A stretch of 60,619 nt of DNA, counting the filler. It is 8 parts of 8 records of this genome, joined end to end, with 100 filler letters (N's around TTAATTAATTAA, not from the genome) between each part and the next. Parts side by side here need not be neighbours in the genome. Positions count along the whole stretch, not along the records: positions 34,863 to 46,627 come from SRR31147125_77066; 7 more parts are not named here. The stretch is one strand, 5' to 3'. The notes below the pieces were generated by a model, which saw only the letters and a list, made by a program, of their open reading frames with translations, did no database searches and was not told the DNA's origin. Numbering within the stretch: the first letter of the stretch is position 1; each line of letters opens with the position of its first letter. The position numbers and the translations under genes were made by a program. This document shows, piece by piece, positions 6,513 through 53,228 of this stretch.

Positions 6513-6612
6513 NNNNNNNNNNNNNNNNNNNNNNNNNNNNNNNNNNNNNNNNNNNNTTAATTAATTAANNNNNNNNNNNNNNNNNNNNNNNNNNNNNNNN
6601 NNNNNNNNNNNN
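6513..6612. other. Artificial contig spacer (N44-TTAATTAATTAA-N44)
   Basis: Identical 100-bp block with stops in all six frames; occurs seven times in the window. Confidence 0.99.
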
Positions 6613-12611: not shown

Positions 12612-12711
12612 NNNNNNNNNNNNNNNNNNNNNNNNNNNNNNNNNNNNNNNNNNNNTTAATTAATTAANNNNNNNNNNNNNNNNNNNNNNNNNNNNNNNNN
12701 NNNNNNNNNNN
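12612..12711. other. Artificial contig spacer
   Basis: N44-TTAATTAATTAA-N44. Confidence 0.99.
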
Positions 12712-18189: not shown

Positions 18190-18289
18190 NNNNNNNNNNN
18201 NNNNNNNNNNNNNNNNNNNNNNNNNNNNNNNNNTTAATTAATTAANNNNNNNNNNNNNNNNNNNNNNNNNNNNNNNNNNNNNNNNNNNN
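18190..18289. other. Artificial contig spacer
   Basis: N44-TTAATTAATTAA-N44. Confidence 0.99.
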
Positions 18290-26561: not shown

Positions 26562-26661
26562 NNNNNNNNNNNNNNNNNNNNNNNNNNNNNNNNNNNNNNN
26601 NNNNNTTAATTAATTAANNNNNNNNNNNNNNNNNNNNNNNNNNNNNNNNNNNNNNNNNNNN
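26562..26661. other. Artificial contig spacer
   Basis: N44-TTAATTAATTAA-N44. Confidence 0.99.
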
Positions 26662-34762: not shown

Positions 34763-34862
34763 NNNNNNNNNNNNNNNNNNNNNNNNNNNNNNNNNNNNNN
34801 NNNNNNTTAATTAATTAANNNNNNNNNNNNNNNNNNNNNNNNNNNNNNNNNNNNNNNNNNNN
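34763..34862. other. Artificial contig spacer
   Basis: N44-TTAATTAATTAA-N44. Confidence 0.99.
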
Positions 34863-35717
34863 GTTCTTGATACGGCTAAAGTGGTGGCAGCCGTTTTAAA
34901 TAGTGAGCAGACGCTGAGTCAGATTATTGGCAACGACAAGCTAAATGGACGTAAAATATGGCTTGCATGCCTGCCCACCACATCGGGGACTGGTAGTGAA
35001 GTATCGCCAAATGCGCTTTTGTTCGATGAGTCGGATCATCAGAAAAAAGCCGTAATTAGTCCTTATTTAGTTCCCGATGCTGCCTACGTGGATCCAAATC
35101 TTACTCTTTCGGTACCTTCACACATAACAGCTGCGACCGGCTTTGATGCAATGATCCATTGTCTTGAGGCTTACACAAATATCAATGCTCACCCACTTGT
35201 TGACCTTTTCGCCCTGGAAGGCGTCCGATTGGTCAGTGAAAATCTGCAGCGAGCGGTAATAAATTGCAGGGATATTGAGTCGAGAATAAATTTGGCACGC
35301 GCGAGTCTTTATGGTGGCAAATGTCTTGGACCGGTTAATACTGCTGCTGTTCATGCGCTTGCTTATCCGCTTGCAAACAGGTTTCATATAACTCATGGTT
35401 TGTCTGTGGCAGTCCTGTTGCCTTTTGTTTTTGAGTATAATATTTCGGCCAATCCCAAAAAACATGCAGATGTTGCTTTGGCGCTGGGTGCACAGGCAGG
35501 ATCTTCCGATGAAGAAACTGCGTTATATGGTGTTGAGAAAATAAAAAAGCTAATGACAGCCTGCGGTTTATCGTTAAAACTTGCTGACTTTATCTCCTTA
35601 AATGATTTACCCTCAATAGCAGAGGATGCCATTAAAATCGAACGATTGTTGAACAATAATCCTAGAAAGATGAATAAAACAGATATTATTGATATTTTCC
35701 AAAACGCATTGAGATAG
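34863..35717 (+). CDS. Iron-containing (type III) alcohol dehydrogenase, 5'-truncated
   Basis: (V)LDTAK at the contig edge; PTTSGTGSE, DAMIHCLE, HALAY, HG metal ligands. Confidence 0.9.
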   Translation, partial: VLDTAKVVAAVLNSEQTLSQIIGNDKLNGRKIWLACLPTTSGTGSEVSPNALLFDESDHQKKAVISPYLVPDAAYVDPNLTLSVPSHITAATGFDAMIHCLEAYTNINAHPLVDLFALEGVRLVSENLQRAVINCRDIESRINLARASLYGGKCLGPVNTAAVHALAYPLANRFHITHGLSVAVLLPFVFEYNISANPKKHADVALALGAQAGSSDEETALYGVEKIKKLMTACGLSLKLADFISLNDLPSIAEDAIKIERLLNNNPRKMNKTDIIDIFQNALR

Positions 35718-35727
35718 AGGCGAAAAT

Positions 35728-36639
35728 TTGAACAGATTAAAAAAGAAATATTCAGGTGTAATCGTTCCGATGGTTACGCCATTCGACAATGACGGACGGA
35801 TTGATTTATTAGCAACAGAACGCATTACCGAGTTTTTACTGGAAAATGGAACATCTCCGTTTGTGCTTGGGACCACCGGAGAATCTGCATCCATCCCGGA
35901 TGAATATCGACTCAATTTTGTAAAAAATGTTGTTAAAATAACCGCCGGAAGATCGTTGACTTTTGCGGGAATTGCATCCAATTGTTTTGAGTCGTCTGTT
36001 AATCTTGCCAAACATTATTTTGATTTTGGAGTGGATGCAGTTGTTGCTCATCTTCCGGGTTATTATCCGCTAAATAAGGATCAGATGCTATCTTATTTTG
36101 AATCTCTAGCTGATGCTTGTCAAGGACCGATGATTTTATATAATATTCCCAAGACAACGCATCATTCCATTCCGTTGGACCTTATCGACCATCTTGGTCA
36201 ACATTCGAATATTTGTGGATTAAAAGATTCAGAGCGAGATTTGGCAAGACTCGAAAAAGCAATTTCTATGTGGAAAGAAAGACCGGATTTCAGTTTCCTG
36301 ATTGGTTGGGCAGCGCAGTCATCATATGGGCTGTCATTGGGTGCTGACGGTATTGTTCCAAGTACAGGAAATATTATACCGGATATGTACAGCAAAATTT
36401 ACAACGCCGTGTTAAAAGGTGATTCTTCAACCGCAGATTTATATCAGCAGAAAACCGGTAAAATTTCACAAATTTATCAAAAGGACAAGATTCTCAGTGA
36501 ATCGATTCCCGCTTTAAAAATCATCATGAATTATCTTGGCTTGTGCGGCCCCCATGTGTTGCCTCCCCTAATAGAGCCGTCTAACGAGGTTCGGGAGGAT
36601 ATTCACAAAAAAATGAAAGTATTGGGATTAATGTCCTGA
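35728..36639 (+). CDS. DHDPS/NAL superfamily class I aldolase
   Basis: MVTPF, GTTGES, ILYNIP (Tyr), GLKDS (Schiff-base Lys). Confidence 0.9.
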   Translation: MNRLKKKYSGVIVPMVTPFDNDGRIDLLATERITEFLLENGTSPFVLGTTGESASIPDEYRLNFVKNVVKITAGRSLTFAGIASNCFESSVNLAKHYFDFGVDAVVAHLPGYYPLNKDQMLSYFESLADACQGPMILYNIPKTTHHSIPLDLIDHLGQHSNICGLKDSERDLARLEKAISMWKERPDFSFLIGWAAQSSYGLSLGADGIVPSTGNIIPDMYSKIYNAVLKGDSSTADLYQQKTGKISQIYQKDKILSESIPALKIIMNYLGLCGPHVLPPLIEPSNEVREDIHKKMKVLGLMS

Positions 36640-36680
36640 CGAATGTGCAGCCGCTTGAGTCATAGGAACAGGATCATCAA

Positions 36681-37724
36681 ATGATAGACAAAAATAATAA
36701 ACCTTTAATTGGCATCACTATGGGTGACCCGGCTGGAATTGGCCCGGAAATCGCACTAAAGGCGCTTCAAAAAAGAAAAGTGAATGAGATTTGTCGTCCT
36801 ATAATAATAGGCGATGCAAAAGTACTTGAATCGGCTGCTGAATTCACTGGTTTGACTGTTCAAATTAGACCGATATCATCTATCGAAAAGACCGATTTCA
36901 ATGCCAATATTATTAATGTGTATGATTTGAATAATGTCGATCTCTCAAGAATTTCGTTTGGTCAAATATCTGCGCATGCCGGATATGCTGCTTATGAAGC
37001 TATTGCAAAGGTCATTCAACTGGCACTGGATAATAAAATCGATGCAACAGTGACAGGCCCGATAAACAAAGAGTCTATTCACCTGGCCGGTTTTCCTTTC
37101 CCCGGGCACACAGAGATATTTGCACACTTTACCAATTCACCGGATACTGCCATGCTGCTGGTCTATGACAATCTTCGGGTCATTCATGTTACGACTCATG
37201 TTCCATTAAAAAGTGCATGCGAATTAATCAAAAAGGAGCGAATTGTCATAGTTATTCGGTTATTAGCAGATGGTTGTCAGACCTTGGGAATTGCTTCGCC
37301 AAAAATCGGTGTTGCAGGTCTCAATCCCCACGCCAGCGACGGTGGTCTGTTTGGCTCTGAAGAGCAAGAGGAAATATTACCGGCTGTTAATGAAGTCATA
37401 TCACTTGGTATTGATGCGGAGGGACCGATTCCGCCTGATTCTCTTTTCCCTAAGGCGATTGGTGGGTATTATGATGGTTGTGTTGCTATGTACCATGATC
37501 AGGGGCATATTCCCTTCAAGTTGGTGGGATTTTCGTGGGATCAAAAATTGCAGTGCATGTCCAGCGTTAAGGGTGTTAATGTGACACTTGGACTTCCTAT
37601 TATCCGAACATCTGTGGATCACGGGACTGCATTTGAGATTGCCGGGAAAGGAATGGCCAGCGAAGACGCAATGGTGCATGCAATAGAGTACGCAGTAAAA
37701 ATGACAAGAAATAAGCTCCACTAA
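36681..37724 (+). CDS. pdxA: PdxA family (PdxA2-type) 4-phospho-tetronate dehydrogenase
   Basis: MGDPAGIGPE, GHTE, LNPHA, YHDQGHIP, RTSVDHGTA; adjacent to a DUF1537 kinase. Confidence 0.92.
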   Translation: MIDKNNKPLIGITMGDPAGIGPEIALKALQKRKVNEICRPIIIGDAKVLESAAEFTGLTVQIRPISSIEKTDFNANIINVYDLNNVDLSRISFGQISAHAGYAAYEAIAKVIQLALDNKIDATVTGPINKESIHLAGFPFPGHTEIFAHFTNSPDTAMLLVYDNLRVIHVTTHVPLKSACELIKKERIVIVIRLLADGCQTLGIASPKIGVAGLNPHASDGGLFGSEEQEEILPAVNEVISLGIDAEGPIPPDSLFPKAIGGYYDGCVAMYHDQGHIPFKLVGFSWDQKLQCMSSVKGVNVTLGLPIIRTSVDHGTAFEIAGKGMASEDAMVHAIEYAVKMTRNKLH

Positions 37725-37741
37725 AAAACGTAAGAACTTTT

Positions 37742-38893
37742 ATGATTGCTGTGCTTGCAGATGATTTTACCGGTGCCGCAGAAATTTCGGGTATCGCTAT
37801 CCGCTACGGATTAAAAACTGAACTACAGACTGATATTCTGTCGGATCCCCAATCGGACATTTATGTTATTGATACAAATACCCGTTCTGCTACTAAAGAC
37901 GCTGCCATGGCAACATTTGACAGGATCCTTCCCAGACTTCTCAAGTTGGAGCCACTTTGGATTTTCAAAAAAACCGACTCTGTTCTTCGCGGTCATGTTA
38001 TCCATGAATTAATTTCGACCATGAAAGCATGTGGAAAGAATATGACACTTTTAATCCCTACGAACCCTGAAAAAGGTCGCATCATTCACAAAGGGAACTA
38101 TTATATTAATGGAGAATTGTTGCATAAAACGACCTTTTCTGATGATCCTGAGTATCCAGCACGCACAGCTGATGTATTAAAGTTATTGGGAAGTCCTGGT
38201 GAAATTAAAACAAGTGTTTTAAAACCAGACCAGCAATTGCCTTCAAAGGGAATTGTTGTTGGGGAGACAAGAAACCGGAAAGAATTGGAGCAATGGACTA
38301 AAAAATGGGAAAGCAGCATGCTTCCGGCAGGAAGTGCAGAATTTTTCGAAATGCTGTTACAACAGCTCGGATATCAGGAAAATATATTCAATTCAATTCA
38401 AAAATTATTAACAGGTAAAAGGGTGCTTGTCATCTGGGGTAGCAGTCTTTTAAAAACGAGCAAGACATATGACATTTTTCGAAACGCAGGATTTAATATA
38501 GTCGAAATTCCGGTACCACCCAATGCGATAGAATTGATTAAAGAATCGGTTTTGACTGAAATGGTACGCCTCGTTTCTGAAAAAATGTCGCGCAATGAAA
38601 GAGTGGTATTTTCATTTAAAAGAGAGCAAATTAAAAAAACAACGGTCAATCCGTCAATTTCAGAAATATCCGGAAATCTTGTTAAGGAGATTGTGCAACG
38701 TTTTGATATTAAAGAATTGCTTATTGAAGGAGGCTCAACAGCATCGACTATTGTGAGGCAATTAAACTGGGAGCGATTTACACCAGTTCAGGAAATTTTA
38801 CCGGGTGTTGTCCGGCTCCAGGTAGAGTCCCACCCAGGTGCATATCTAACCGTAAAACCTGGAAGTTATGATTGGCCGTCGAATCTGATATAA
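37742..38893 (+). CDS. Four-carbon acid sugar kinase (DUF1537; DtnK/DenK-like)
   Basis: ADDFTGA, KKTDSVLRG, EGGSTA, VKPGS. Confidence 0.9.
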   Translation: MIAVLADDFTGAAEISGIAIRYGLKTELQTDILSDPQSDIYVIDTNTRSATKDAAMATFDRILPRLLKLEPLWIFKKTDSVLRGHVIHELISTMKACGKNMTLLIPTNPEKGRIIHKGNYYINGELLHKTTFSDDPEYPARTADVLKLLGSPGEIKTSVLKPDQQLPSKGIVVGETRNRKELEQWTKKWESSMLPAGSAEFFEMLLQQLGYQENIFNSIQKLLTGKRVLVIWGSSLLKTSKTYDIFRNAGFNIVEIPVPPNAIELIKESVLTEMVRLVSEKMSRNERVVFSFKREQIKKTTVNPSISEISGNLVKEIVQRFDIKELLIEGGSTASTIVRQLNWERFTPVQEILPGVVRLQVESHPGAYLTVKPGSYDWPSNLI

Positions 38894-38920
38894 AAGTGGA
38901 TTAAACAAGAGGAACGTATT

Positions 38921-40486
38921 ATGCAAACGCCATCGCTGCACTTGTTCGATTATTTTGTTGTTATTATATCATTAGTTGTTGCTTTGGGTATTGGTATATC
39001 ATTCTCCCGCCGTCAAAACAGTACAAATAAATATTTTGCCGGAGCAGGTTCAATCCCGTCCTGGGCTGTCGGGATGTCCATTTTGGCTACACTTATTAGC
39101 AGCGTTACATTTCTTGCCTACCCCGGAGAAGGCTACTCCTCCAACTGGATTTTACTGGTTCAGGGATTGATGGTTCCAATCGTTTTGGTATTTCTGGTGC
39201 GTTTTGTAGTGCCACTTTACCGAAACGTGATCGGTTTGAGCGCCTATGAATATTTCGAAAAGCGGTTTGGCTTTCTGGCCCGTTTGTATGGATCGCTCGC
39301 CTTTATCTTAACCCATTTCTCAAAAATGGGAACTGTTTTTTTTCTGCTCGGTTTGGCCCTCTCAAAAATGATAGGAGTTAACACGTACATAATTATTTGG
39401 GTGCTTGGAATTGCCATTATTTTTTTAACACTGATAGGCGGAATTGAAGCCGTGATCTGGCTTGATGTTATCCAGGGCTTTATGTTAATTGCAGGTGGTT
39501 TACTGTGCGTCGCTGTTTTATTATTCCGACCAGAGGGAGGGCCGGCTGCCATCTTTCAGATAGCTTTTGAAAATAACAAAATTGGGTTCAGTCCCTATGA
39601 ATGGGACCTTACCAAACTGACCTTTCTAGTGATGGTCCTGAATGGTATCTTTTACGCTATTCAAAAATATGGAACCGACCAGACGATTATACAGCGATAC
39701 CTCACTGCGCGATCAGATAAAAGTGCAATCAAAGCAGCCTTAATGGGAGTATTTTTGAGCGTACCTGTTTGGACTTTGTTTATGTTTATTGGAACCGCAC
39801 TCTTTGCGTATTATAAAATAACGGGAGCATCGCTGCCCGCTGATATTCGACCTGATGCTGTATTTCCATTATTTATCATGACTGAATTGCCTGTTGGATT
39901 AACAGGTTTGATTCTGGCTGCGCTAATGGCTGCGGCCATTTCGAGTCTCGATTCCGATTTGAATTGCCTTGCTGCAATCGGTGTGGACGATTACTATGCC
40001 AGGATTAAACCCAATAGTACAGATGAGCAGAGACTGAAGGTAGGGCGTATACTGGTGGCACTTTCAGGCATTGCCGCAATGATCGTTGCGACGCTGTATA
40101 TTAAAGCGGGAAACAAAGGTGTATTGGGAATTGTATTCGGACTATATGCTATTTTTTCCGGCGGCATTGCCGGTTTGTTTTTACTTGGATTATTTAGCAG
40201 GCGTGCAAACAAATCCGGACTTTATGTGGGTATTGTTGCCAGCGTTTTATTTACGGCATGGGCTGTTCTTACATCTACAAAGTTTTCAATTGGAGGAGAA
40301 TCGCGTGTGATATTGGATTTAGGACGATTCAATTTTTCCCATCACAAGTATATGCTCGGTGTTTACAGCCATTTGATTCTGTTTGGTGTTGGTTATATTG
40401 CCAGTCTCTTTTTTAAACGTGAAAAACCTGATGAAAGCCTGACCATTTATGGCTGGTTAAAATGGAAAGAAAAAATCACCAACTAA
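38921..40486 (+). CDS. Sodium:solute symporter (SiaT-like subgroup)
   Basis: SILATLISSVTFLAYPG, SAYEYFEKRFG, GGIEAVIWLD, DQTIIQRYL, AAISSLDS; many TM helices. Confidence 0.9.
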   Translation: MQTPSLHLFDYFVVIISLVVALGIGISFSRRQNSTNKYFAGAGSIPSWAVGMSILATLISSVTFLAYPGEGYSSNWILLVQGLMVPIVLVFLVRFVVPLYRNVIGLSAYEYFEKRFGFLARLYGSLAFILTHFSKMGTVFFLLGLALSKMIGVNTYIIIWVLGIAIIFLTLIGGIEAVIWLDVIQGFMLIAGGLLCVAVLLFRPEGGPAAIFQIAFENNKIGFSPYEWDLTKLTFLVMVLNGIFYAIQKYGTDQTIIQRYLTARSDKSAIKAALMGVFLSVPVWTLFMFIGTALFAYYKITGASLPADIRPDAVFPLFIMTELPVGLTGLILAALMAAAISSLDSDLNCLAAIGVDDYYARIKPNSTDEQRLKVGRILVALSGIAAMIVATLYIKAGNKGVLGIVFGLYAIFSGGIAGLFLLGLFSRRANKSGLYVGIVASVLFTAWAVLTSTKFSIGGESRVILDLGRFNFSHHKYMLGVYSHLILFGVGYIASLFFKREKPDESLTIYGWLKWKEKITN

Positions 40487-40684
40487 AAAATGCACAAATT
40501 ATAGCAATAGAATTAATCGAGATGAAATGATTGAATTTAATAACATTTCTCCTCCAAAATACCCAATATCTTGATTTACCAGGAGTCTATCAGAATAACA
40601 TACTGGACGTGATAACTGATTTTTGGATGGAGAATTCTGATAATTTTTGTAGAATCAACCATTTAATGAAAAAGTGAGTTTCCG

Positions 40685-42074
40685 ATGAAAAGGTATTCTT
40701 TAACACGCCGTAATTTTCTTACAGCTACATTAACCGCATCCATAGCAGGTTCAAAAGGAATTCGTGCTGCCGTTCAGGAAACATCTTTACGCAAACCGAA
40801 TATCATCTACATCATGGCAGATGACCTTGGCTACGCTGACCTGGGCTGCTATGGACAACAAAAAATCAAAACTCCTCACATCGACCAGTTGGCAAGGCGA
40901 GGAACGCGGTTTACACAAGTATATTGTGGCTCGGCTGTGTGCGCTCCTTCACGGCATGCACTGATGACTGGTCAACATATGGGGCATGCTACGATTCGTG
41001 GAAACCATCCAAAAGTGGGTGGAATACCTTCCTTATAAAGAACCTTCCACACGTTTACCATTAGCCTCCAAAGACGTCACTGTGGCTCAAATTCTAAAAA
41101 ATGCTGGCTATGCGACTGGTATTACCGGCAAATGGGGGATCGGCGAAGCAAACACAGATGCCACCCCTAATCAAAAAGGATTTGATGAATGGCTGGGATA
41201 TCTGAATCAGGATCATGCGGTTTATTATTGGACGGATACGCTATGGCTCAATCGTCAGAAACTACACATTCAGGAAAATCAAGATAATAGGCGAGGAAAA
41301 TACACTCACCATCTTTTTACGGATTTTGCGATTGATTTTATCGCTGATCATAAAGATCGTCCTTTCTTCCTTTATTTGGCTTTTACTATTCCACATTCAA
41401 AAATTGTTGTACCTGATCTCGGGCCATATGCTGAAAAAAAGTGGCCCGAGTCCATGAAAACCTACGCTGCTATGATTTGGCAATTAGATCAATCGGTCGG
41501 TCGGATTATCGAAGAAGTTGAAAAACAAGGATTGACTGATGATACCATAATCTTTTTCTGTTCAGACAATGGTGTAGCCAGGCAGGAATGGATTGATTTT
41601 TTTCACAGTCACGGTGGTTTACGGGGCAAAAAAGGCGATCTGCTTGAAGGTGGCATTCGAACACCCATGATTGTGACATGGCCAGGAAAAATTCCTGCCG
41701 GTCGTATCAATCAGGATTCTGTATGGTATTTTCCCGATTTTCTTCCCACGGCAGCTGATCTTGCTCATGCGCAACCCCCGTCCAATATTGATGGAATTTC
41801 GATTCTGCCAACGCTGTTGGGAAAACGACAAAATCTTGAGGAGCGCTACCTCTATTGGGAATTTCCGAGAAGAGATACCTATCAACAAGCCGCTCGCCAG
41901 GGTCGTTGGAAAGTTTATCGTAATAGATTCGATGAGCCATTACAATTATACAATTTGGAAGCGGACCCGGCGGAACTTTACAACCTTGCAGCTCAACATC
42001 CTGATATGATTCAACGGTTTGAGGAGTATATCAAACATGTACGAATTGAATCACCTCACTGGCCATCTAAATAA
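40685..42074 (+). CDS. Arylsulfatase-family (S1) sulfatase with Tat signal (frameshift ~41020-41035)
   Basis: TRRNFL; ADDLGY; CAPSR formylglycine motif; GKWG; SDNG; EGGIRTP. Confidence 0.9.
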
Positions 42075-42441
42075 TACGAGAGGGATGGAAAAGTCATCCC
42101 GTAATGTGGAAAAATTCCATTCTTCATGCTAAATTATATGTTTATTTAAATGTCTGAATGAATGACCGTGCGAATATTATCCAAACAAAAAAGCGCATCT
42201 GCTATGTTCTGGTACTTTTTCGCCATGAATTTCCATAACATTTACAATTCCTCAGAAAAAAACAGGATTATTTTTTTTCCGGTGCAATGTTCGACTTTTT
42301 CTATAATTGGTGGCGTAGAATTGAGTACATATGAACCTGTTTTATTTGATAAAATACCAGAATATTCTTGTCGTTTCATTTTAAAAAGGCTTCCAATCCA
42401 CAAACCATCTGTAGATAAATAATCGATAAAAAGGTATAACC

Positions 42442-45400
42442 ATGAATTATAAAATAATAATCGCGATTATTTTGAGTATGCAATTAATAAACTGCACGCA
42501 AAAACAAAGCCAACTCTCTTATTTTGATACGCAGTCAAACATAGATTACCAAAAATTAAAAGAAGGCTTTTACAACGTTCCGCAGGAAGCCAAAATGCGG
42601 GCCTGGTGGTTTTGGATGAGTGGCATTGCAACCAAAAAATCCATCACGCAGGACCTGGAGGCTATGAAAGCCAATAACATTGCCGGGACAATACTTTGTG
42701 ATAATGGCGGTGATTACTCTCCACCCGGCGTCGTTTTTATGAGTGCTGAATGGAAAGAGAACTTTGCACATGTCATCAAAGAAGCAGACAGGCTGGGAAT
42801 AGAGATAAGCCTGAATATTCAGAGCGGGTGCGGGGATCCGGGCAATCCCAACATCAAAGATGACAACGGTCTGAAAAAAGTGACCTGGAGCGAAATACAG
42901 GTTCGTGGACCAAAGAAAATTGAAATGGAACTGCCCCTGCCTGCCAACGAGATTTTTTATAAAGACCTTACCGTTCAGGCCATTAAAACCATGGAATCAG
43001 ACAAACGTAAAGATGGGTTGATAAAAAACTGGAGTGTCAAGAGTTTCAACAAGAAGGAGAGGTGGAGTAAAGCACTGGATCGCTATGATTTGAACCAGTT
43101 TTATGACACTTTTGAAAAAGACAGAGAAGACGCAGCTATTGCAAAAAATGATGTCATTGATTTGAGTGGTTATTACAAAGATGGCAAACTCACCTGGGAT
43201 GTTCCTGCAGGTGAATGGACCATTATCCGTTATGGTTATACCTCCACCGGTAAACGAAACGACTATGCCAGCGAAGGCTATAAAGGCGGATTGTGTTACG
43301 ATCCCATTCATAAAAGAGGGATAAATGCCCAGTGGAAAGATGTGATAAAACCCTTGATTGATATTGCCAAAGCAAATGGTAACAGCCTGAAATATGTGCA
43401 TGTTGACAGTTGGGAAATGGGGACAACAAACTGGACGCACGATTTTGAAACAGAATTTAAAGAACGGCGAGGCTATGATATAGAACCTTATTTGCCTATA
43501 CTGACAGGCCGCATTGTGGGCAGCAGGGAAATTGCCAACCGTTTCCTGGAAGATTTTCGCACAACCGTTGGTGATTTGGCAGCGCAATATAACTACAGTG
43601 AGTTATACCGATTGGCACATTCCGAGGGTATTTCCATGCACTCGGAAAACGCAGGTCCGCACCTGCCTCCGGTTGATGGTTTTAAGGTCCTTGGAATAAA
43701 TGATATACCCATGGGTGAAACCTGGGCAAGGTCTACCACCCATCGTAGTACTGAGGGGAGAAGGATACATATCAAAATGGGTTCCAGTGCGGCACACATT
43801 TATGGCAAACGTTTTTTTGCTGCCGAGATACCCTCTTCCATAGGCCCGATTTGGGAACGAAGCCCGGCTGATGTAAAAATTGTTTTCGACAGGGCATTTT
43901 GTACTGGTGTAAACCGGGTAAACTGGCATACCTACACTTCATCGCCCGATGAATACGGCCTGCCAGGAGTTGAGTATTTTGCAGGCACGCATATGAACAG
44001 GCATGTAACCTGGTGGAAAGAGGCAAAAGCATTTACTGAATATGTAAACCGGGCACAGCATATGTTAACACAAGGATTGCATGTGGCCGATGTATTGGGC
44101 TACGTGGGGAGCGGAGTGCCATTATTTGGATTTCTGAATAGTGATCGTGGCGATATTCCCCAAGGGTATGCCTGGGATATGTGCAACGGCGATGTACTTT
44201 TAAACCGTGCGAGTGTAAAAAACGGACGCATTTATTTGACGGATGGTAAAAACTATTCACTCCTTGCACTCTCAAAACATAAAGATATATCGTTACCGGT
44301 GTTAAAGAAAATTGAGGAACTGGTAAAAAAGGGAGCGGTTTTGGTCGGAAATCCACCAGAAAGGGCTTCGGGATTGACAGCTTACCCTGAATCGGACAAG
44401 GAACTGGAAACCATTGTAAAAAGACTCTGGGGAGACGCTGAGGGTACATCCACATTTGTAAATAACTTTGGAAAAGGTAAAGTGTATGCCGGAAAAACAG
44501 TGGCAGAGGTATTGGAACTGGAAAAAATGAAACCCGACCTGGCCTGGGAACCAAAGGAAGATATTGACCTGGAATACATCCACCGTACATCAGGTGATGT
44601 GGATATCTATTATGTTCTGAACAAATGGGCATGGAAGGGCATCAACGATTTAAATCCAAGACATGTTGCCGCTCTGCCCGACAGGTATATTCAAACAAAA
44701 TGTACATTCAGGGTAAATGGTGACAGAAAAATTGAACGTTGGGATCCTGTTACAGGTGAAATTACCCCGGTGGAAGTGTATGAATCCCAGAACGGTTGCT
44801 ACACTTTGCCGGTTTCCCTGGAACCGGAAGGAGCTGCTTTTTACGTGTTTAGCAAAGCAGAAAAATCAAGTCATGTTACCAAAATAAAAAAAGATGGTGA
44901 AGAGCTGGTCGAAGGAAATTCCCCATTTACCACAGGAGCTTCCGGGCTCATCGTAAAGGATAATCGATTGGAAGTATCTGACAACGGTGAGTATAAACTC
45001 ACTTTTGATGATGGAAAAGAAGTTAAATTTAAACATACGGAGGCCGTTGAAGGAATAAATCTGGACGGCACATGGCAGGTGACTTTTATGGAAAAACAAT
45101 TATTGGGAGAGCCATTCACTGCTACTTTTGATGAATTAAAATCCTGGACAGAATCGGATAAACACAAAATCAAATATTTTTCCGGTACGGCACGCTACCA
45201 AAAGTACTTTACCTTAGAAAAAGATAAAATTTCCAATGGCCGTGCTTATCTGGATCTTGGGAAAGTGGGAGATATTGCCTCGGTTAAAGTTAACAGCAAA
45301 AAAGTGGGAATTTATTGGAAACCGCCATATATTGTCGATATTACAGACTATGTAAAAGAAGGAGAAAATGACCTTGAAATTGCTGTAACCAATTTATGGG

Positions 45401-45579
45401 TAAACAGATTGATAGGTGATGAAAAGCTACCGGCTGAAATGCGAAAAACATCAACCAACCTGGTAAATGAGGCCAGATATGAAAAACTTAAAGGGGCTGA
45501 TGCAGACAAGTATCTGAGATATTCGGGATTGATGGGGTCGGTAAAGATTCAGTTTTCTAAAATCTACCAAATAAGATGA
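42442..45579 (+). CDS. Glycoside hydrolase family 106 (alpha-L-rhamnosidase-like), probable lipoprotein
   Basis: LINC lipobox-like; WWFWMSG..TK..IT.DLEAM, DSWEMG, DIPMGE; C-terminal FSGTARY...LDLG...N.LEI.VTN.WVNR.IGD. Confidence 0.85.
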   Translation: MNYKIIIAIILSMQLINCTQKQSQLSYFDTQSNIDYQKLKEGFYNVPQEAKMRAWWFWMSGIATKKSITQDLEAMKANNIAGTILCDNGGDYSPPGVVFMSAEWKENFAHVIKEADRLGIEISLNIQSGCGDPGNPNIKDDNGLKKVTWSEIQVRGPKKIEMELPLPANEIFYKDLTVQAIKTMESDKRKDGLIKNWSVKSFNKKERWSKALDRYDLNQFYDTFEKDREDAAIAKNDVIDLSGYYKDGKLTWDVPAGEWTIIRYGYTSTGKRNDYASEGYKGGLCYDPIHKRGINAQWKDVIKPLIDIAKANGNSLKYVHVDSWEMGTTNWTHDFETEFKERRGYDIEPYLPILTGRIVGSREIANRFLEDFRTTVGDLAAQYNYSELYRLAHSEGISMHSENAGPHLPPVDGFKVLGINDIPMGETWARSTTHRSTEGRRIHIKMGSSAAHIYGKRFFAAEIPSSIGPIWERSPADVKIVFDRAFCTGVNRVNWHTYTSSPDEYGLPGVEYFAGTHMNRHVTWWKEAKAFTEYVNRAQHMLTQGLHVADVLGYVGSGVPLFGFLNSDRGDIPQGYAWDMCNGDVLLNRASVKNGRIYLTDGKNYSLLALSKHKDISLPVLKKIEELVKKGAVLVGNPPERASGLTAYPESDKELETIVKRLWGDAEGTSTFVNNFGKGKVYAGKTVAEVLELEKMKPDLAWEPKEDIDLEYIHRTSGDVDIYYVLNKWAWKGINDLNPRHVAALPDRYIQTKCTFRVNGDRKIERWDPVTGEITPVEVYESQNGCYTLPVSLEPEGAAFYVFSKAEKSSHVTKIKKDGEELVEGNSPFTTGASGLIVKDNRLEVSDNGEYKLTFDDGKEVKFKHTEAVEGINLDGTWQVTFMEKQLLGEPFTATFDELKSWTESDKHKIKYFSGTARYQKYFTLEKDKISNGRAYLDLGKVGDIASVKVNSKKVGIYWKPPYIVDITDYVKEGENDLEIAVTNLWVNRLIGDEKLPAEMRKTSTNLVNEARYEKLKGADADKYLRYSGLMGSVKIQFSKIYQIR

Positions 45580-45735
45580 AAAATCGATCCAATAGAATTA
45601 TGCTCTTTGCATTAATCTTATCGCTGCTATTGGTTGGTTTTTTCAAAAATATTTCTGAATTTACAGTATCCTGAGCATTGAATATCCTTTGCGCAAGTGA
45701 TGCTCACGTTCAATCTGAATAGGAGGTAAGAAGAG

Positions 45736-46627
45736 ATGGAGGACACACACATTGGAAGGCGACAATTTATGCAGTATTCTGCTGCTGGTGTTGTTTTTGC
45801 CGTCTCATCAAACGCGGCTTTGGCAGATGATTCGATTTCTCTGCGACAACCTGCAAAAAAGATTGAAGAGACTGTTACGACAAAGGCTGACATCCTTGTT
45901 GTCGGCGGCGGAACGGCGGGCACCATTGCGGCCATCCAGTCTGCCAGGGCTGGAACGAAAACGATCCTGATCGAGCGGGGATCTCAGCTTGGCGGCACAA
46001 CGACTACAGGAGGTGTGGCTTTCCCGGGGATTTTTCATGCCTGGGGGAAACAGATCATTTCCGGCATTGGATGGGAATTGGTAGTCGATACCGTTTTGTT
46101 GGATGGTGGCTGTTTTCCCGATTTTTCACTGGAAATAAACAATACTTCCGTCCGGCATTGGCGGCACCAGATACATATCAACCCGTTTTTGTATACCATC
46201 CTTGCCGAGGAAAAGTGTGAGGAAGCTGGAGTAGAAATTGCTTACTACGAATCTCCTCAGGCCATTACCAAAACAGCTAAGGGATGGCAGGTGGATTGTG
46301 TTGGATTTAGCACCCGGCGTCGTGTGTTGTGTAAGCAAATTATTGACTGTACAGGCGGTGCGGAGGTGGTCGGCCTTTTAAATCTCCCCCGGCTTCGTGA
46401 AGAAGAAACGCAACCCGGCTCCATGTTATTTCAACTGGGTAAAGCCAATAATCCCGGACGCCAAAATGGCCCGGGAACAGGTACCCTGGATGCTCTGTAT
46501 GTTCACGGAGCTGATTCAACCAATTCCCGAACCGTTACAGCAGCAAACCTGGCAGGTCGTAAGGCCGTTCTTGAAAAAGTCCGGGCATCTAAAAAACGTT
46601 TAATGCACCTACAGCCAGAGGTTGGTT
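45736..46627 (+). CDS. FAD-dependent oxidoreductase (FAD_oxidored-type) with Tat signal, 3'-truncated
   Basis: GRRQFMQ; DILVVGGGTAG..AAI..AR.G; IDCTGGA. Confidence 0.85.
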
Positions 46628-46727
46628 NNNNNNNNNNNNNNNNNNNNNNNNNNNNNNNNNNNNNNNNNNNNTTAATTAATTAANNNNNNNNNNNNNNNNN
46701 NNNNNNNNNNNNNNNNNNNNNNNNNNN
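46628..46727. other. Artificial contig spacer
   Basis: N44-TTAATTAATTAA-N44. Confidence 0.99.
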
Positions 46728-53128: not shown

Positions 53129-53228
53129 NNNNNNNNNNNNNNNNNNNNNNNNNNNNNNNNNNNNNNNNNNNNTTAATTAATTAANNNNNNNNNNNNNNNN
53201 NNNNNNNNNNNNNNNNNNNNNNNNNNNN
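53129..53228. other. Artificial contig spacer
   Basis: N44-TTAATTAATTAA-N44. Confidence 0.99.

Follow-up and report, generated by a model that had tools for sequence, protein, structure and literature searches.

What becomes of 3-deoxy-D-lyxo-heptulosarate (Dha) once it has been cut from a glycan? Dha and 3-deoxy-D-manno-octulosonate (Kdo) are signature sugars of rhamnogalacturonan-II (RG-II), and the enzymes that release them are known. The question of what follows release is raised here by five adjoining genes in a 60.6-kb stretch of DNA, the whole of which we call the window. They encode an iron-type alcohol dehydrogenase (Fe-ADH), an aldolase of the dihydrodipicolinate synthase (DHDPS)/N-acetylneuraminate lyase (NAL) family, hereafter ALD, a paralogue of PdxA, an acid-sugar kinase of the DUF1537 family and a sodium:solute symporter (SSS). 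A first-pass annotation of the window had read this set as a candidate catabolic route for a C7 2-keto-3-deoxy acid such as Dha, an interpretation that is supported by the independent genomic context reported below. Dha is probably the physiological substrate of the module, all substrate assignments being predictions from sequence. We have good confidence in the broader statement that the module would import and split a keto-deoxy sugar acid from RG-II-like or algal glycans and pass its C4 remainder through a route of the DtnK/PdxA2 type. A full-text literature search, in which most matches were judged from their abstracts and subscription papers and supplements were beyond reach, returned no description of Dha catabolism, no Dha aldolase locus or gene-level Kdo aldolase locus and no link between DUF1537/PdxA2 and RG-II. 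All of the enzyme families are known, and the novelty lies in the way they combine into a proposed route for a sugar without a known fate.

Identity of the five genes

Pfam and NCBIfam searches and inspection of the translations agreed with the identities, strand and coordinates that the first-pass annotation had given to the five genes (Table 1), and the tight spacing it had described corresponds to gaps of 10, 41, 17 and 27 nt. Its description of the genes thus stood, while the truncation of Fe-ADH and the joining of separate contigs in the window had gone unmentioned. The N terminus of Fe-ADH is missing because the contig that carries the module starts at position 34863; its alignments to the 382-position NCBIfam model set in only near position 107, so that about 100 N-terminal residues are lacking. 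Orthologues at the same gene position in loci L125, L126 and L129 are full length (381 amino acids). Both Pfam domains place the fragment in group III, it is too short for any equivalog cut-off, and its translation shows D-x4-H and H-x13-H, in keeping with the Asp/His/His/His metal-ligand pattern of FucO.

The catalytic residues of ALD that had been reported as intact were found at residues 48 to 53 (GTTGES), Tyr138 and Lys166; GTTGE, Y138 and K166 do not vary among 30 relatives, and their conservation across 62 ALDs is 100%. By profile, lysine, tyrosine and GxxGE motif, ALD belongs to the PF00701 superfamily of class I (Schiff-base) pyruvate aldolases. It stays below the cut-offs of the named branches of that superfamily, with 161 bits against the dapA model TIGR00674 (cut-off 206) and 123 and 91 bits against the NanA models NF003164 (cut-off 281) and TIGR00683 (cut-off 382), and its lowest NCBIfam scores, 54 to 65 bits, were obtained with the KdgD models. 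Position 143, which we take to be the equivalent of the aspartate-semialdehyde-binding Arg138 of Escherichia coli DapA, is threonine in 95% of the 62 ALDs. The residues conserved specifically in ALD are T143, E169, R174, R185 and the loop P211-S212-x-G214; a sister clade described below (ALD-P) has H, S, Y, a variable residue and N-G-x-A instead. R174 and R185 were considered as binding residues for a distal carboxylate, an idea that was not retained.

The PdxA paralogue is a member of PF04166 and scores 351 bits against TIGR00557, above the cut-off of 290. Its Protein Data Bank (PDB) matches include 4jqp (291 bits), 2hi1 (PdxA 2, 270 bits), 6e85 (D-threonate 4-phosphate dehydrogenase, 263 bits) and E. 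coli PdxA 1ps6 (207 bits). Exactly two PdxA genes were found in each of the four module-bearing Bacteroidota genomes described below; the copies within the module are 58 to 61% identical to that of the window and the other copies 33 to 36%. By these comparisons, the PdxA of the window is a paralogue and not the vitamin-B6 enzyme, and it is probably of the catabolic PdxA2 kind. The DUF1537 kinase has the two-domain architecture of its family (SBD_N and NBD_C) and scores 66 bits against the 3-oxo-tetronate kinase (OtnK) model (cut-off 350); its gene is not truncated, since orthologues measure 368 to 395 amino acids. The nearest solved relative of the symporter is 5NV9, with 282 bits over residues 7 to 445, compared with at most 158 bits for other SSS structures. 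This entry bears the title "putative sodium:solute symporter" and is the sialic-acid transporter SiaT of Proteus mirabilis, so the description of the symporter as SiaT-like holds.

Table 1. Positions of the module genes and of other features along the window
Feature	Position	Strand	Basis
Fe-ADH, iron-type (group III) alcohol dehydrogenase, 3' fragment	34863/34881-35717	+	PF00465 positions 99-168, PF25137 in full
ALD, DHDPS/NAL-family aldolase	35728-36639	+	PF00701, E 2.8e-52, residues 8-297
PdxA paralogue, PdxA2-like dehydrogenase	36681-37724	+	PF04166, E 3.7e-106, positions 1-286 of 286
DUF1537-family acid-sugar kinase, divergent	37742-38893	+	PF07005 residues 2-159, PF17042 residues 230-375
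SiaT-like SSS, sodium:solute symporter	38921-40486	+	PF00474, E 1.9e-41
Sulfatase, two overlapping open reading frames in different frames	40685..42074	+	Pfam Sulfatase on both open reading frames
GH106 alpha-L-rhamnosidase	42442..45579	+	PF17132, E 2.5e-165; PDB 6q2f 384 bits, 5mqm 346 bits
FAD-dependent oxidoreductase, 3' end cut by contig end	45736..46627	+	PF12831
Artificial linker bounding the 5' end of the module contig	34763..34862	.	N44-TTAATTAATTAA-N44
Spacers	6513-6612, 12612-12711, 18190-18289, 26562-26661, 34763-34862, 46628-46727, 53129-53228		N44-TTAATTAATTAA-N44

Conservation of the module

A scan of metagenome contigs with an ALD profile gave 534 relatives, and the analysis went on with the 80 best loci (ALD identity of 44 to 60%). 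Relatives at 50 to 70% identity number in the thousands and are named in their sources merely as "dihydrodipicolinate synthase family"; the source names include Planctomycetota, Poribacteria, KSB1, Sedimentisphaerales and Bacteroidota. Two gene orders recur in the 80 loci, that of the window, FeADH-ALD-PdxA-DUF1537-SSS, and ALD-SSS-FeADH-PdxA-DUF1537. Dozens of independent loci, from metagenomes and genomes alike, show the set in one or the other of these fixed orders, and its arrangement therefore goes beyond chance. After merging of ALDs with at least 90% identity, 59 groups including the window remained. Counts were made over the 28 of them whose flanking sequence reached at least 8 kb: SSS was present in 25, PdxA in 22, DUF1537 in 21, Fe-ADH in 17 and all five genes in 15. 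Within an even sample of 401 Bacteroidota genomes, an ALD orthologue occurred in four (386 to 425 bits), each time in a complete five-gene set with the order of the window. The five-gene set is thus a real and widespread module. A scan of genome contigs with the single ALD protein had yielded DapA-like relatives only (24 to 40% identity), and these loci were reused as the negative control.

Association with GH143 and other RG-II hydrolases

We clustered the open reading frames (ORFs) flanking all loci and scanned the representatives against Pfam. After the five genes themselves and a split transketolase, the commonest neighbour was a protein of about 650 amino acids with PF24067 (BT_1020-like beta-propeller), which matches residues 24 to 606 of PDB entry 5MQR with 787 bits. 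A second neighbouring gene, found in 4 of the 28 groups and located directly after the first wherever both were mapped, matches residues 612 to 1102 of the same structure with 773 bits. 5MQR is BT_1020 (PMC7263609), whose N-terminal half is the glycoside hydrolase family 143 (GH143) Dha hydrolase and whose C-terminal half is a GH142 beta-L-arabinofuranosidase (PMC13501991; PMC7263609); together the two activities dismantle side chain D of RG-II, arabinofuranose-beta1,5-Dha (PMC13501991; bioRxiv 10.64898/2026.03.13.711244).

Co-occurrence with the Dha-releasing GH143, which the first-pass annotation had named as a check on its reading, was observed at both levels of sampling. Nine of the 28 dereplicated groups have GH143, all 12 copies being co-directional with ALD at a distance of 1.7 to 9.5 kb; the 28 DapA-like control loci, 425 kb in all, yielded none. 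Among the 401 Bacteroidota genomes, 4 carry ALD, 16 carry GH143 and 3 carry both (hypergeometric P = 2.0e-4), so that GH143 occurs in three of the four ALD genomes against 16 of 401 overall. In two of the three genomes with both, ALD and GH143 lie on one contig, 11 and 19 kb apart. More generally, carbohydrate-active enzymes of the RG-II type accompany ALD in 14 of the 28 groups, namely, GH140 (apiosidase), GH141, GH95, GH78, GH28, GH2, pectinesterase and GH106, the last counted for the window.

A sister clade with a different set of partners

The Bacteroidota survey also revealed an ALD paralogue, ALD-P, in 10 further genomes (219 to 241 bits against the ALD profile; 32 to 38% identity to ALD). 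In a quick tree, the 63 rows of ALD, the 8 of ALD-P and the 7 of DapA-like proteins formed separate groups with SH-aLRT supports of 99, 99 and 97; two long-branched DHDPS2 rows were left unplaced. The neighbourhoods of ALD-P cover 8 of the 10 genomes (loci L139-L146, from G293, G176, G381, G313, G173, G388, G333 and G236). In all 8, ALD-P stands beside an SSS that is 43 to 50% identical to the ALD-linked transporters. A full-length L-fucose isomerase together with an FGGY kinase occurs in 4 of the 8, and 3 of the 8 encode a sialidase-like BNR_2 protein of 331 to 335 amino acids that is 45 to 48% identical to a member of a GH78 cluster, the matched region not having been mapped. Fe-ADH, PdxA and DUF1537 were found in none of the 8 loci and GH143 in none of the 10 genomes.

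Aldolase cleavage of Kdo gives D-arabinose, and D-arabinose is a substrate of enzymes of the FucI/FucK type. Because Kdo yields D-arabinose, the neighbours of ALD-P are the set expected for Kdo, and the ALD-P locus looks like an undescribed utilization locus for Kdo or a related ulosonic acid via D-arabinose. Each aldolase-SSS pair thus appears tied to genes that suit its predicted aldehyde, a pentose from Kdo in one case and a C4 aldehyde-acid from Dha in the other. The GH78 cluster includes a 1,270-amino-acid GH78-BNR_2 fusion (L128:10447-14256) of genome G252, with the architecture of BT1013, an RG-II chain C rhamnosidase and Kdo hydrolase (PMC13501991). The two sets adjoin each other in G252, where GH143-GH142 ... 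GH78-BNR and SSS2 are followed by an isomerase-like gene, another DHDPS gene and then FeADH-ALD-PdxA-DUF1537-SSS.

Proposed route for Dha

The C4-C6 configuration of Dha is D-lyxo, the same as that of C4-C6 in Kdo. When the stereochemistry put forward in the first-pass annotation was derived anew on paper, it came out the same: cleavage between C3 and C4 of Dha leaves D-threuronate, and its reduction gives D-threonate. In the proposed route, Dha would be freed outside the cytoplasm, from RG-II or from glycans of the algal scale or theca type, by GH143-type or related sialidase-fold hydrolases, and would be brought in with Na+ by the SiaT-like SSS. ALD, through a Schiff base at Lys166, would split it into pyruvate and D-threuronate, the aldehyde of which would be reduced to D-threonate by Fe-ADH with NAD(P)H. 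The DUF1537 kinase would then form 4-phospho-D-threonate, the PdxA2-like enzyme would oxidize its C3, and the product would decarboxylate to dihydroxyacetone phosphate (DHAP) and CO2, a conversion of 4-phospho-tetronate to DHAP and CO2 that was reportedly described by Zhang and colleagues in 2016. The net reaction would be Dha + ATP -> pyruvate + DHAP + CO2 + ADP. Because one NAD(P)H would be used and one NADH made, the route would be redox neutral at the cost of one ATP, which would suit the anaerobic sediment- or gut-type samples from which, unchecked, we take some of the loci to come. As to the individual families, DtnK and DenK of the DUF1537 family are kinases of D-threonate and D-erythronate (PMC10971088), and PdxA2 belongs to organic-acid catabolism (PMC9997740).

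Three other substrates or routes fit less well. The alternative offered with the first-pass annotation, a 3-deoxy-heptulosonate degraded via a tetrose, is not favoured, no aldehyde dehydrogenase being conserved in the module. The apionate route, in which PdxA and DUF1537 would correspond to ApnO and OiaK of D-apiose catabolism, was rejected: ApnO is described as having a fold like that of ketol-acid reductoisomerase, and a search for "PdxA" in the same paper gave no match (PMC13753588). A nonphosphorylative route for L-rhamnose or L-fucose, with a 2-keto-3-deoxy-L-rhamnonate or 2-keto-3-deoxy-L-fuconate aldolase and a lactaldehyde reductase, was suggested by the GH106 gene of the window. It would leave PdxA and DUF1537 unexplained, and it is further disfavoured by the clustering of flanking ORFs, in which GH106 was found in no other ALD locus.

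Evidence against the proposed route and alternative explanations

Several observations weigh against Dha as the substrate or against single steps of the route. ALD, the PdxA paralogue and the DUF1537 kinase all fall below the specific NCBIfam equivalog cut-offs: PdxA scores 302 bits against the D-threonate-4-phosphate dehydrogenase model NF002891 (cut-off 583), and the kinase scores 112 bits against the D-threonate kinase model NF047819 (cut-off 450), over its N-terminal 164 residues only. The kinase is the least conserved member of the module (31 to 45% identity among loci), and its best PDB match, 4xfm, reaches 58 bits over the N-terminal domain only. For the reductase step no precedent was found, a full-text literature search for threuronate being without a match. 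Of the 22 groups with PdxA, 5 lack Fe-ADH; PdxA itself is not shown in 6 of the 28 groups, 4 of which have ALD-SSS without Fe-ADH, PdxA and DUF1537. At the genome level, 13 of the 16 GH143-bearing Bacteroidota genomes have no ALD orthologue, and one of the four ALD genomes has no GH143. Bacteroides thetaiotaomicron, among 14 control genomes, is positive for GH143 (PF24067) and negative for DUF1537 (PF07005); this model RG-II degrader seems to lack the module. On the contig of the window itself (34863-46627), GH143 was not seen, GH106 and a sulfatase being the only glycan genes visible. The nearest relatives, L029, L058 and L125, have a sulfatase where others have GH143, and L029 and L125 additionally have a protein with FGE, PA14 and BNR domains (FGE-PA14-BNR) instead of GH143. 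Finally, a fucose-isomerase-like gene that would fit Kdo lies directly upstream of ALD in the L065 group.

Part of this evidence would be accommodated if ALD and SSS handled Kdo (or 5-O-methyl-Kdo, or both Kdo and Dha), with Fe-ADH, DUF1537 and PdxA forming an independent route for D-threonate or D-erythronate that travels with RG-II loci and perhaps serves another rare sugar, e.g., apiose or aceric acid. Given their shared C4-C6 configuration, one aldolase could take both Kdo and Dha; the groups with ALD-SSS but none of the other three genes point the same way, as does the L065 group, where an FGGY kinase and a second DUF1537 also lie beside ALD and where ALD may have a dual Kdo/Dha role. We nevertheless consider this explanation quite unlikely, since the ALD-P clade already has genes of the D-arabinose type and has the C4 genes in none of its 8 loci, and since the BT1013-like GH78-BNR fusion of G252 is accompanied by another DHDPS-family gene, an SSS and an isomerase-like gene that come in addition to the ALD module. 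Moreover, one of the two gene orders interleaves the C4 genes with ALD and SSS and the other keeps them contiguous with that pair, across phyla, which would be unexpected for an unrelated pathway.

It is also unlikely that the module degrades some other 2-keto-3-deoxy acid, aldaric or ulosonic, that comes from marine sulfated glycans and has yet to be described. This acid would be freed by the FGE-PA14-BNR protein after desulfation, and Dha-containing RG-II would be just one source among several or would not be what the window organism uses. Such a substrate would agree with the glycan genes on the window contig, with the presence of a sulfatase in 6 of the 28 groups and with the order of the closest relatives, sulfatase-FeADH-ALD-PdxA(-DUF1537-SSS) preceded by FGE-PA14-BNR (L029 and L125) or by a beta-helix protein (L058). 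However, sulfatase and GH143 are combined in L056, L086 and genome G102, and any substrate would have to leave a C4 aldehyde-acid that suits DUF1537 and PdxA2, which restricts it to a C7 ulosaric acid very like Dha. Moreover, 2-keto sugar acids of the Dha and Kdo type are major parts of prasinophyte scales and thecae, and Dha itself is found in the scales of marine prasinophytes and in the theca of Tetraselmis (PMC10762512). Very improbable, in our estimation, is that ALD is not an aldolase at all but a DHDPS-family dehydratase/decarboxylase like KdgD or an isozyme of DapA or NanA, in which case the gene order would reflect co-regulation without a shared pathway. The family does include dehydratases, and dapA gives the top NCBIfam score of ALD. 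On the other hand, both the dapA and the NAL scores lie under their cut-offs, the KdgD scores are the lowest, position 143 differs from the presumed DapA arginine, and the ALD clade is separate from the DapA-like rows. The pairing with a SiaT-like importer in 25 of the 28 groups, in turn, mirrors lyase-plus-transporter systems.

Comparison with known systems and implications

The module resembles the systems for D-threonate and D-erythronate catabolism (DtnK or DenK with PdxA2; Zhang et al. 2016, PNAS, as cited in PMC10971088, PMC9997740 and PMC13753588) in that a DUF1537 kinase adjoins a PdxA2-like paralogue and that the predicted end products are DHAP and CO2. It differs from them by the addition of the aldolase, Fe-ADH and SSS, by the tetronate that would be made in the cell from a C7 acid instead of being imported and by a kinase that is very divergent, as the score against NF047819 indicates. 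With sialic-acid utilization (NanA, a SiaT-type SSS and a sialidase), it would share a sialidase-fold exo-hydrolase, import by an SSS and a class I aldolase of the DHDPS family that releases pyruvate; ALD, however, lies under the NanA cut-offs in a separate clade, and the downstream genes of the module suit a C4 acid and not the processing of N-acetylmannosamine.

In the GarL-GarR-GarK pathway of glucarate and galactarate, a keto-deoxy aldaric acid is split into pyruvate and an aldehyde-acid, which is then reduced and phosphorylated. The same sequence of splitting, reduction and phosphorylation is proposed here, with the differences that the substrate would be one carbon longer, that ALD is of the class I DHDPS type and not of the HpcH type and that the C4 product would need an additional oxidative decarboxylation by PdxA2. 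As to the RG-II degradome of B. thetaiotaomicron, orthologues of both halves of its BT1020 stand directly beside the module in several lineages, whereas the organism itself appears to be without the module and its published degradome ends at the release of Dha. The absence of the module from this organism may explain why the route has so far gone unnoticed.

Taken together, these data allow a joint reading, which we regard as attractive yet tentative as a whole: the five-gene set would be the first pathway for Dha, present in several phyla, its marine form with sulfatase and FGE-PA14-BNR would mark bacterial consumption of Dha-rich glycans of algal scales or thecae, and ALD-P, with a BNR hydrolase, SSS, FucI and FGGY, would represent a matching, undescribed pathway for Kdo via D-arabinose. 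If this reading of Dha and Kdo is true, the final gaps in what is known of how microbes degrade RG-II sugars would be closed. For Dha alone, the candidate set of five genes spells out a redox-neutral series of reactions, by which the fate of the free sugar becomes directly testable, and the module, if correctly interpreted, would provide markers for recognizing consumers of Dha in metagenomes of gut, rumen, sediment and marine origin. DUF1537/PdxA2 chemistry would likewise be extended from imported tetronates to a tetronate made in the cell from a C7 sugar acid.

Variant loci

Some loci depart from the two common gene orders. In one sub-clade of ALD, L030, L031, L034 and L038 read ALD-SSS-RecR, while their close relative L039 reads ALD-PdxA-DUF1537-SSS-RecR, which suggests that the PdxA-DUF1537 pair was lost or relocated recently. 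Transketolase genes split into N- and C-terminal halves lie directly upstream of ALD in L040, L042, L056, L068 and L093 and occur also in L124 (19114-18116); in L093 and the L040 group they occupy the position that Fe-ADH has in the window. These transketolases may belong to an apiose transketolase route or provide an alternative handling of the C4 aldehyde.

A conserved block precedes ALD in L065, L070, L072, L074 and L079. It comprises a second DUF1537, a major facilitator superfamily transporter, an Asp/Glu racemase, an FGGY kinase, a BKACE protein and a protein with only the C-terminal domain of fucose isomerase, and it is accompanied by a split transketolase and pectinesterases. The block may encode a route for some other rare sugar of RG-II, with apiose and aceric acid as candidates. 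Two of the four module genomes have an additional and longer DUF1537 gene (G064:C1:1715676-1716401 and G252:C2:256484-257203), with an open frame of 444 to 453 amino acids, 17 to 22 kb from the GH143 gene or the module.

Context of the module in the window

The window is made up of eight contigs of 5.5 to 11.8 kb each, with a GC content of 0.34 to 0.55, strung together by seven N44-TTAATTAATTAA-N44 spacers. The module lies wholly inside the sixth (34863-46627; 11.8 kb, GC 0.42), which is cut on both sides. As unrelated contigs have been joined, gene neighbourhoods across spacers are meaningless, and the genes for class II fructose-bisphosphate aldolase, PfkB and the phosphotransferase system (PTS) upstream of 34863 are unlinked to the module, being on another contig. 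The bin behind the window may be mixed. On that neighbouring contig (28431-31039 and 32815-33471), the HPr domain of the PTS is split between an EIIA-HPr ORF and an HPr-EI ORF that overlap, and the ORF of the PfkB kinase spans only about two thirds of its profile; both may be further assembly frameshifts.

Within the module contig, the sulfatase is interrupted by a single frameshift near 40990-41040: in a tblastn comparison, the intact sulfatase of L125 aligns through residues 1 to 98 in frame 3 and through residues 115 to 448 in frame 1. The split gene is either a pseudogene or an assembly error, and its N-terminal piece appears to retain what we take to be the active-site signature. The window organism may feed on a sulfated marine glycan. 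The FGE-PA14-BNR protein of related loci has 830 to 940 amino acids, with an FGE-sulfatase-like domain, usually PA14 and a sialidase-type propeller (BNR_2), and its gene recurs upstream of sulfatase-FeADH-ALD in the marine-type loci L029, L052, L053, L056 and L125 (5448-7937). Its PDB matches cover the FGE domain, plus just two weak sialidase matches (E of about 0.003 to 0.005). The protein is put forward as a possible new exo-hydrolase, one that would act on a sulfated keto-deoxy sugar acid.

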